A stretch of 64,000 bases of DNA. Origin: SAR324 cluster bacterium (GTDB taxonomy: Bacteria > SAR324 > JACQKK01). Shown one piece after another: positions 48,401 to 51,400 of the stretch. Position 1 is the first letter of the stretch, and every line of letters starts with the position of its first letter. The stretch spans positions 1 through 64,000 of the forward strand of contig JACZRV010000004.1 of the NCBI GenBank assembly GCA_022574555.1. The letters run 5' to 3'. The position numbers were made by a program.

Positions 48401-51400
48401 CTCGGCTCGCGGATTACCGCCCGGGACAGGAGATCGGAGGGGCAGGGCACACCCGTACCATCGCCGAAGTGAACACCGACGATGGTTACAAGTTCACCTT
48501 CGACGATGGATCCTGGCTCATGATGCGCCCGTCGGGCACCGAACCCAAATTGCGCATCTACGCGGAAACCCGGTCGAGCCCGGAAGAGACCCGTGCCCTG
48601 TGCGAAATGGGAGAAAAGCTGGCCCGCGATGCCATTCACGCGGCCTGATTCCGGCCCCTGCAATAATATTTTTTCCCCCGGCGGATACAAGGAGACCATG
48701 ACCGGCAAACTTACCGCACTCTACCCGATCAGCGGCAATCCCCCCACCTGGGGTCACGCGGACGTGATGGAACGCGGGGCCCGGATTTTCGACAGCGTTG
48801 TCTGGGGGCTGGCGGTCAATCCGGGAAAGTCCTATCTCTTCAGCGAGGGAGAACGGCTGGAAATGATGGAGACCTACGTGCGGCACTTCGCTCTTGAAAA
48901 TGTGACGGTCAAGACCTACTCCGGAGCCACGGTGCGTTATGCCGAGGCCATTGGCGCTACGATAATTCTCAAGGGCCTGCGAAATTCGACGGATCTGCAA
49001 GCCGAGATGGAGCAAGCCATGGGCAACCGCGGTATGAACGACCGGATCGAAACCCTCGCCATGTTCACCTCACCGCGCTATTCAGTCGTCAGTTCCAGCC
49101 TCATCCGCGAACTGGCGTTGCTGGGGGAGGACATCACCCCCTACGTCCATGACGCCGTGGCCCAACAGATCAGAACACTGCTTGCGGCCAAGGGGTTGAT
49201 TTCCCAGGCATAAAGCGGCACCCTGGGCCAAAGGCGGCTAGTCACGGCCTCGAAACGAGAATTACCCGAACCCGAATTACCCGAACCCGGTTGCCATGGA
49301 ACGGTATCACGGGAGTAGGTGGCCGAAGGGAATCGGCCTGCTGGCGGCAACGCTGGTGGTCATCAGCTTGTCTACGTATCATCCCTTCGATCCCACCCTG
49401 CTCAATCTGCTCTCTCCGAGCGAAGGCGTGCATAATGCACTGGGACTCGCCGGTGCGCTGGTGGGCGGATCGCTCCTGGAAGGATTCGGTGCCGCCAGTT
49501 GGCTCATCCCGTTGCTGATCGGCAATTGGTTCGCCTTCCCCCGCCGGCGTCCACGACTGATGCACTACGCGGCACACGGCGGCTTGTTGCTTCTGTTCGC
49601 GGCCTCGTTCCACGGTTTGTGGTCCCACGATCCTACGCCTGGGGCCTGGCGGCCGGGTCTGTTGGGGTGGGCCGGCGGAAACTGGGCTGAGTCCACGGCC
49701 GGGTCCGTTTTGGGTGGTGCATTGCTGCTGGGGGGAGTGGCCTACAGTTTGACGCGGATCGTGTATTTCGTATCGTGGCGCCGCCGGTCTGCCGAGATAT
49801 TCGCCTTCGGCCGCTACTTCCTCTCCCGCGGCGATGAGGCCTTGCGCCATTCAACCCGTGCGGGAGCCCATGCTGTGGCTGCGGCAGGTGATGTTTTGCG
49901 AAGCGGATTCGCAGCGCTCTCGGGAGATCTCCTGGCCGCAGGCCGCATTCTGCGGCGCACTGTTTATCGTTGGCGGCCCTTCCCCTATCGCCCGGCCTTG
50001 GCGCATCGTTCGCGCCGCATGGGTGGAGGTGTTCAGGGTGCCGCTGCGATTGAAAAGCCGGTACCGCACCCCGAAGTCGAACGATCAGATGCGCGAGGAG
50101 CGAACGACGCGTTCGACGCCTGGTTTGCCCAAAACGATTCCCAACCGCAGAAATCCATTTCTACCGGCGATAACGAGCCGGCCGAAATTCGCGCTGCGGA
50201 CGATTCGTCGACGGCCAGAATATCGGACGAACAAATCGCGAAGTGGGAGGAGCATCTGCGACGCTACCAGGAAAATATGGACCTGGACTGGCCGGACAAA
50301 TTGCTGAACGACGCGTCGAGACCACTGGAGGGAGCCGAAAAAGATGCAGACGAGAAAAGGCGTGATCCCCCTTGAGCCCCACCGTGGGCGAATTCGCGGC
50401 GGCTGATGCGTTGCCGGGGACATGGGAAAAACGGGGTTGCCGGAGGCGTCCGATGATGGCAGCGTATCTCTGCGGCGCGCATTGTCGTGCCTACAAACCA
50501 CCGATGCCAACAATAACCGGCAGCAGCCGATCGCCTCGATTGCGCGCATGCACTCACCTAATGCAAATGCTTGACATCGATCAGGATCATACGTACCGTG
50601 GACTTAAGACATCGTCACGTTTCTTTCTTCTCGATAATCCCACGACAGCCGGCGGCTCCCGACCGTACAATCGGGGGTTCTCACTGAATCCCAAAATTTG
50701 ACAGGCCAGCGTACATTTTGACACGATGCATGGCCGCACGAAATATATCGATCACGCCGATCCCGACTGAACTCTTAAAACCGAGCATCCGAATACAAAA
50801 GCGATAGAGCGGCCTGCCCGGTGGTGAGTTCCACCGCTCGGTGCAAGCCCATTCCTGGACAGCTGTTAGATCAGCATATCGACTATTCCAGGCCCATCCA
50901 CTGCGGAAATTGCGTATCACGGATGGGACAATCACGCCTCGCTGATACCGTGCGGAAGAGCCCCGGTGCGATTCCGCCTCAAGCCAGGCCCAACCGTTAG
51001 ATAACTGTGTCTATGAAAAATTCGACCGCCGCCAGCGAGCCTGCCAAGCGAGATCCTCCTGTGGCATCCCGCGAATCCAGTTCCTCGGCTTCATCCCGCG
51101 AATCCAGTTCCTCGGCTTCAGCCCGCGAATCCAGTTCCTCGGCTTCAGCCTCCAATTCTTCCACAGCCACATCTTCCTCGGCCAGCCCGCCCAAGCCGTT
51201 GGATCTGACCGAGTTGAAACGGCTGAGCATCGCGGAATTGAATCAGAGGGCCAGGAATTTCCATATCGAGAATGCCAGCAGCCTCCGCCGGCAGGAACTG
51301 ATCTTCTCGCTCTTGGAGGCTCAGTCCAACAAGAATGGATTGATTTACGGAGCCGGTGTTTTGGAAACCTTGCCGGACGGATTCGGCTTCCTCCGCTCAC

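Follow-up and report, generated by a model that had tools for sequence, protein, structure and literature searches.

FtsK gene and missing motor

The DNA studied here, referred to below as the window, comprises positions 1-64,000 of contig JACZRV010000004.1 from the SAR324 cluster bacterium GCA_022574555.1 (G000). The part of the window considered here carries the following features:

48593..49213, + strand: coaD-like gene (CTP_transf_like), 5′ neighbour giving the context of the FtsK gene
49296..50375, + strand: FtsK, 359 aa, membrane (4TM) domain and short cytoplasmic tail, without motor and without gamma domain
49335..49718, + strand: FtsK_4TM domain (PF13491), aa 14-141, E 2e-11
50244..50291, + strand: C-terminal helix motif, aa 317-332, common to nine own-family orthologues
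51007..52449, + strand: rho, 3′ neighbour; the contig continues, with no motor gene after the FtsK gene

FtsK_4TM is the sole domain matched by the 49296-50375 protein, and the stop codon of its gene is located inside the contig, between coaD and rho. The preliminary description, in which FtsK was said to be cut down to its membrane domain, is therefore borne out. The coaD neighbour is found at 20 of 29 4TM loci, and the 4TM genes of relatives also end in a stop within contigs. At nine loci, the own-family 4TM proteins share the C-terminal helix consensus W-E-x-x-x-R-R-Y-x-E-N-L-D-L-D-W. A short F-D-x-W motif precedes it (about 50112 in the window). As a separate observation, the N-terminal extension of the neighbouring rho contains a short tandem repeat encoding ASSRESSSS units (51070-51150).

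The survey covered 88 genomes of the phylum. The order contributes 64 of these: 19 from f1, the own family, and 45 from a second family, f2, which we take to be the pelagic one. SAR324 and Lambdaproteobacteria are the names carried by source labels of homologues. Outside the order, four small families (f3-f6) account for five genomes, and f7 is a further family of the phylum. Most genomes surveyed are incomplete bins and the relatives are non-independent samples; five genomes (G005, G006, G038, G064 and G065) consist of a single contig.

In the G000 genome, no protein matched the PF01580 motor over its cut-off, and tblastn searches with two real FtsK motors gave best E values of 0.55 and 0.21. 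The motor was matched in 1/64 genomes of the order and 9/88 of the phylum, and it is absent from all five single-contig genomes. The PF09397 gamma domain was matched in 1/88 phylum genomes, against 8/14 controls. The lone match of the order, comprising both motor and gamma domain, sits on a 17-kb contig (C11 of G037). Because this contig bears a divergent second glnA, 65-66% identical to G037's own copy and to that of a congener, and because a separate 4TM-only gene is also present in G037, it is probably foreign DNA. A split FtsK, with the motor encoded elsewhere, was considered and rejected, none being found in the order. Thus, absence of the motor from the genome and from nearly the whole order is upheld, and the near-absence of the gamma domain noted earlier extends to the phylum. 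FtsK_4TM itself was rightly reported as present, but the earlier figure of 37/63 was too low: at E<=1e-3, it is found in 57/64 order and 79/88 phylum genomes. Motor loss alone is not unique to SAR324, because the Synechococcus and Thermotoga controls likewise gave no motor match.

The eight motor-positive genomes of f7 divide into six with gamma-less membrane-plus-motor proteins and two with unrelated FtsK-domain proteins. In the former (among L021-L027), the membrane-plus-motor FtsK has 565-603 residues, and a 4TM-only gene is present besides. Since the tails in f7 show a loose similarity to the first alpha-domain helix of FtsK, the C-terminal helix motif of the own family may be a stub that was retained.

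Altered XerD and degenerate XerC

Two genes of G000 are related to the recombinases of the XerCD system:

C24:27448-28353: XerD orthologue with altered catalytic residues
C130:41530-42528: XerC-like gene, degenerate

The XerD orthologue was found in 58/63 order relatives, some copies being partial, in keeping with the order-wide presence first noted (57/63). Among 51 genome orthologues, K148 and R244 are each found in 51, and R247 and Y279 in 50; position 270 is Tyr in 48, Phe in two and truncated in one. Similarly, 120 database homologues have K148 (120), R244 (119), R247 (120), Y270 (118) and Y279 (120). The changes R148K, H244R and H270Y, initially described as fixed, are thus confirmed. 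E151 is nearly invariant. In addition, the beta2-beta3 hairpin carrying K172 is two residues short in 51/51 orthologues vs 1/104 outgroup Xer proteins, and its K172 column contains 38 Lys and 13 Arg. Whereas RHRHY is kept in 98/104 outgroup Xer proteins, the SAR324 pattern reads K-(short hairpin)-R-R-Y-Y. The TIGR02225 XerD cut-off was passed by no protein in 88/88 phylum genomes. In a quick tree, the altered XerD proteins form one group (support 99) apart from canonical Xer proteins, with a sister group that is not named. The glutamates E183/E184, implicated in FtsK-gamma docking in passages of PMC5052618, were dropped as a sign of loss: they are unconserved in the altered XerD and equally variable in the 104 outgroup proteins. 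Two further observations may be mentioned. Proteins of 600-700 residues with two tandem tyrosine-recombinase domains (P0245, P0248, P0250-P0258 and others) are among the nearest relatives of the altered XerD, and genus g23 (L283, L284) has Phe for Tyr at 270 together with a changed residue after the catalytic Tyr.

The effect of such changes may be judged from Cre. In passages of PMC2943603, replacement of His II by Arg (H289R) is among five substitutions that are inactive in vivo; R173K is weakly active in vivo and inactive in vitro; W315Y, at the His III position, is near wild type. Because the His II to Arg change inactivates Cre and the Lys hairpin is shortened, the altered XerD is predicted, by analogy, to be unable to recombine. 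The earlier caveat that this enzyme may still cut is accordingly weaker than it appeared, the His II change being sufficient by itself in Cre. The altered XerD would still bind DNA, since the DNA-recognition residue Arg220 is kept in 51/51 orthologues and the fold is also kept: an AlphaFold model (pLDDT 84.5), which gives no active-site geometry, has XerD 1a0p as best structural match. A search of the terminus DNA of G000 and G005 gave no convincing shared 7-9-mer enriched as a site for this protein.

The XerC-like gene, present in 41/64 order genomes with a single query, was rightly called degenerate: His III is missing in 30/30 aligned sequences and the Tyr position is often occupied by F, L or M. 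However altered, XerD and the XerC-like protein are under purifying selection and their genes are not decaying, with dN/dS of 0.02-0.14 (nine pairs; one more skipped) and 0.07-0.27 (six pairs), respectively. In G000 (C130:35733-42528), the xerC-like gene is divergent from glnK-glnA-smc, and glnB/K adjoins it at 27/30 loci.

Two intact recombinases and a palindrome at the terminus

Listing all the tyrosine recombinases of the single-contig genomes led to the recognition of two further enzymes, designated A and B. A palindrome accompanies the former.

G000 C142:40434-41375: enzyme A, Cre-like tyrosine recombinase, 314 aa, best PDB match Cre (E 2e-11)
G000 C142:41395-41422: palindrome, 28 bp (11-6-11), candidate dif/lox-like site, just upstream of enzyme A
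G038 C1:4126573-4127601: enzyme B, tyrosine recombinase, best PDB match XerH (E 2e-8)

Enzyme A has a full catalytic set. Residues R158, K185, H266, R269 and Y301 are invariant in 16/16 aligned sequences, position III being His or Trp. It gave no NCBIfam Xer match at E 1e-15. The enzyme is found in 14/19 f1 genomes and in 4/5 genomes of f3-f6; in f2, only two weak matches (25-38% identity) were obtained. In the single-contig genomes G064 and G065, it is the sole tyrosine recombinase found. Its dN/dS is 0.11-0.14 (two pairs). The SAR324 copies, spread across four families, group with five metagenome members in a single clade (FastTree support 0.999). They are surrounded by housekeeping genes, for instance lon and, at 7/18 loci, lexA. 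As relatives of enzyme A occur on 802 plasmid records, an origin in the plasmid multimer-resolvase lineage is suggested and, from these sequence relationships, is probable. A scan of a genome collection for the enzyme returned only three loci, all distant. Sequence of G000 was found mainly in marine sediment runs, with no RNA run among the public runs listed. Contigs from four public runs span the enzyme A gene and the palindrome, with no joint there. The G010 bin (L138, L156) contains two enzyme A copies, one with His at position III and no site, the other with Trp and a site.

The palindrome has the core CGGTAA-N6-TTACCG, with a dif-like inner part, TAA-N6-TTA. At 13/14 f1 loci, representing 13/13 genomes with DNA there, it precedes the enzyme A match by 27-186 bp; the second G010 copy has no site and the G014 copy is truncated at the end of its contig. 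With G000 left out of the matrix, the G000 palindrome scores highest in its genome, at 26.0 bits vs 21.0 for the runner-up. The spacer is not symmetric, and one and the same spacer may face either way from genome to genome. In the enzyme A clade, a symmetric variant is seen in three metagenome members. Similar palindromes precede 6/13 plasmid or other relatives of enzyme A, against one and zero in two controls; among distant metagenome relatives, 9/66 against five and one in controls represents little enrichment. None of the four f3-f6 copies is preceded by such a palindrome. Among f2 genomes, the pattern occurs only at the rate of its reversed control, and 16 f2 loci scored with the matrix reached at most 21.7 bits. 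A search for canonical dif with a 19-base pattern and one mismatch gave no excess over the reversed control, this pattern being too loose to show absence. That the palindrome is a LexA box was rejected, since the five recA loci scored with the matrix did not exceed 8.0 bits. A distinct palindrome, GAAC-N4-GTTC, is present upstream of lexA in G000 (C142, about 40280; L135) and was not found at recA; it is no more than a candidate LexA box of the Gram-positive type.

The position of this module relative to replication was assessed where possible. The distance of the enzyme A gene from the dnaA antipode is 41 kb in G005, 28 kb in G006, 40 kb in G065 and 596 kb in G064. On contig 5 of G011, all five blocks sampled as far as 560 kb have a positive GC skew and both blocks from 570 kb a negative one; the palindrome, at 566.2 kb, coincides with the switch. 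In G005, the origin switch at dnaA is clear and a broad terminus zone (about 1.36-1.56 Mb) includes the palindrome. In G006, the G-rich octamer GGGNAGGG is distributed 95:52 between strands before the palindrome and 71:152 after it, and this flip of polarity marks the terminus. The palindrome is thus at the terminus in three own-family relatives (G005, G006 and G011). GC skew is too weak to place the terminus in G038, G002, G064 and G065, and G000's own contig is uninformative. The octamer gave no KOPS signal beyond GC skew in either G006 or G000. In G006, 247/370 occurrences (67%) are on the leading strand, about what GC skew (0.05) alone would give (~65%), and in G000 the distribution is 53:49, rank 32 of 42 like octamers.

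Enzyme B is found in 41/45 f2 genomes and 0/19 f1 genomes. Of 120 homologues, 119-120 retain its R-K-H-R-H-Y residues, and its dN/dS is 0.01-0.11 (six pairs). In G038, a weakly skewed genome, its gene lies 202 kb from the dnaA antipode. No shared site was found within about 10 kb of the gene in 21 genomes: 12-mers common to the loci fell within coding sequence, and none of the intergenic palindromes recurred from genus to genus. Enzymes A and B are mutually exclusive and together account for 55/64 order genomes. One or the other is present in 26/26 order genomes that are >=90% complete and <=5% contaminated, one copy being cut by a contig end; the nine order genomes with neither are 51-89% complete.

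Probable replacement of XerCD/dif resolution

Since no gamma domain was found in 87/88 genomes and no XerD over the cut-off in 88/88, loss of FtsK-activated XerCD/dif resolution is supported, reaching beyond the order. The preliminary description had left the choice between a lost and a repurposed system, mentioning mobile-type recombinases as a caveat. Dimer resolution itself has probably been replaced, because the candidate substitutes are intact, conserved throughout their families, mostly present in one copy and under purifying selection, with a dif/lox-like site beside the gene at the terminus in the own family. We consider it fairly probable, from comparison of sequences, that FtsK-activated XerCD was swapped, at least twice, for single self-activating recombinases, which in the own family would be a Cre-like enzyme acting on a palindrome at the terminus. 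The module of enzyme A and palindrome at the terminus is the strong part of this proposal. Assignment of enzyme B as dimer resolvase of the second family stands on weaker grounds, as no site was found for it. The f3-f6 exceptions are also a weak point, and recombination by enzyme A on the palindrome is a prediction.

In the proposed mechanism, four enzyme A subunits would synapse two sister palindromes and crossover would occur in the 6-bp spacer, without activation by FtsK-gamma. The 4TM protein would keep the role of the FtsK N-terminus in the divisome, a role described in passages of PMC1914069. The altered XerD, with or without its XerC-like partner, would be retained to bind DNA without recombining it, its most plausible task being terminus organisation or SMC unloading. 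Chromosome dimers should form, since RecA is present in 5/5 genomes tested, as are SMC and ScpB. According to passages of PMC2680272, Cre/loxP at dif replaces XerCD/dif in E. coli without activation but needs FtsK translocation for simple synapses. SAR324 has no motor and, in 4/5 genomes, only one GyrA/ParC-type gene (L311-L316; G038 has a second, of 704 aa); topological control through arm alignment by SMC would be a guess. A fuller scenario can be imagined, in which there is no translocase at all, a domesticated plasmid-type Cre/lox system serves one family and an unrelated recombinase the other, a dead XerD (with XerC) organises the terminus or unloads SMC, and SMC arm alignment gives simple synapses. 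Taken as a whole, it is tentative and somewhat doubtful.

Several other explanations have to be weighed. The palindrome could be an autoregulatory operator or the box of a transcription factor, with recombinases domesticated for another use and dimers tolerated or rare. It occupies the expected place of a promoter, lexA adjoins at 7/18 loci, G064 has its enzyme A gene off the terminus, 596 kb from the antipode, and passages of PMC3025954 describe bacteria with no recognisable dif/Xer. However, none of the five recA loci scores above 8.0 bits with the matrix, which picks out a single clear site in G000, and the palindrome accompanies the recombinase even where lexA is missing. Moreover, the spacer is asymmetric and may face either way, a terminus position in three genomes would be unexpected of an operator, and Cre-type target sites typically adjoin the gene, 8/17 such predictions being active on testing (passages of PMC10250229). 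This explanation is thus judged unlikely. A rewired but working XerD may also be envisaged, in which Lys148 and Arg244 would have exchanged roles; alone or with the XerC-like protein, it would act without FtsK on the palindrome, then a diverged dif. In agreement, K148, E151, R244, R247 and Y279 are nearly invariant with dN/dS of 0.02-0.14, the inner TAA-N6-TTA is dif-like and, in Cre, Trp to Tyr at the His III position is near wild type while R173K is weakly active in vivo. But the corresponding Cre mutant, H289R, has no activity in vivo, and all 51 orthologues have a shortened Lys hairpin. Besides, f2 keeps both proteins, yet has the palindrome at the reversed-control rate, with at most 21.7 bits at 16 loci; G002 (92% complete) has the palindrome and enzyme A with no match to either protein; and the single-contig genomes G005 and G006 have no XerC-like match. 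A working XerD of this kind is therefore held to be quite improbable.

Finally, the intact recombinases might be relics of mobile elements, and the absence of the motor might partly come from incomplete bins. The 802 plasmid records with relatives of enzyme A and the incompleteness of most genomes would fit this possibility. It is at odds with the motor absence in five single-contig genomes, with 4TM genes ending in a stop inside contigs, with an enzyme A that forms one clade (support 0.999) across four families under purifying selection, and with its housekeeping neighbours (lon, lexA). It is therefore largely excluded and would be very improbable. The replacement of XerCD by single recombinases thus remains the preferred reading.

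Comparison with known systems places this replacement in context. The closest parallel, described in passages of PMC1914069, is offered by XerS/difSL together with YnbA in streptococci and lactococci. As with XerS/difSL, a lone recombinase whose site lies immediately before its gene at the terminus would have taken the place of XerCD; as with the inactive YnbA, an XerD-like protein with changed catalytic residues has been conserved without being part of the system. On the other hand, XerS needs the FtsK C-terminus (PMC1914069, same passages) whereas SAR324 has no motor, and enzyme A is Cre-like, not Xer-like, in a lineage that keeps relics of both XerC and XerD. Enzyme A resembles Cre/loxP of phage P1 in its sequence, its full catalytic set and a palindrome with a 6-bp core adjoining the gene. 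It differs in being chromosomal and conserved across a bacterial family, the arms of its palindrome are shorter and imperfect, and recombination is predicted. Besides, the FtsK translocation on which Cre/loxP substitution in E. coli depends (passages of PMC2680272) is absent in SAR324. Order-wide single-recombinase systems like that proposed for SAR324 are represented by XerH/difH and by XerL/dif of Legionellales; in passages of PMC9765430, their hosts encode FtsK, in contrast to motorless SAR324, where enzyme B has no site found. The same passages locate the XerL gene >400 kb from its site, which offers a precedent for enzyme B. Archaeal XerA/dif (passages of PMC5357621) is a single-recombinase and FtsK-independent system, as proposed for SAR324, but XerA is archaeal and Xer-type whereas SAR324 is a bacterium that keeps the FtsK membrane domain. 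The dif site was not predictable in Cyanobacteria in the work of Kono et al. (passages of PMC3025954). Concerning the altered XerD, it is stated in a passage of PMC12322038 that B. subtilis XerD unloads SMC at the terminus, a function distinct from resolving dimers. All five SAR324 genomes tested have SMC and ScpB too, and SMC unloading would be, by analogy, the best lead for the job of the altered XerD; B. subtilis XerD, unlike it, is catalytically intact.

As first noted, no earlier report for SAR324 was found: the literature on its FtsK and tyrosine recombinases, subscription papers aside, gave only an unrelated paper and work on a mobile integrase. In the passages compared, dimer resolution in bacteria is linked with the FtsK motor, even for Cre/loxP engineered at dif in E. 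coli. In a motorless lineage with circular-looking chromosomes, RecA and SMC, the timing of resolution and unknotting without translocation become testable, and a non-catalytic job of XerD would be separated from recombination in nature. The palindrome, as a dif candidate, may help to locate termini and integration hotspots in SAR324-type genomes. Enzyme A and the palindrome would form a new recombinase/site pair, for which a simple plasmid assay suffices as a test. Modelling of a complex between enzyme A and the tail motif of FtsK scored 0.00, which speaks neither for nor against one. Lastly, a TTATGT half-site resembling a XerD arm occurs in one orientation 20-70 bp downstream of enzyme A at 7/14 loci (G015, G009, G003, G001, G004, G005 and G014; also L153:1443-1462). 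It could be a relic of an old dif, a site for the altered XerD, or the -10 box of the lexA promoter.
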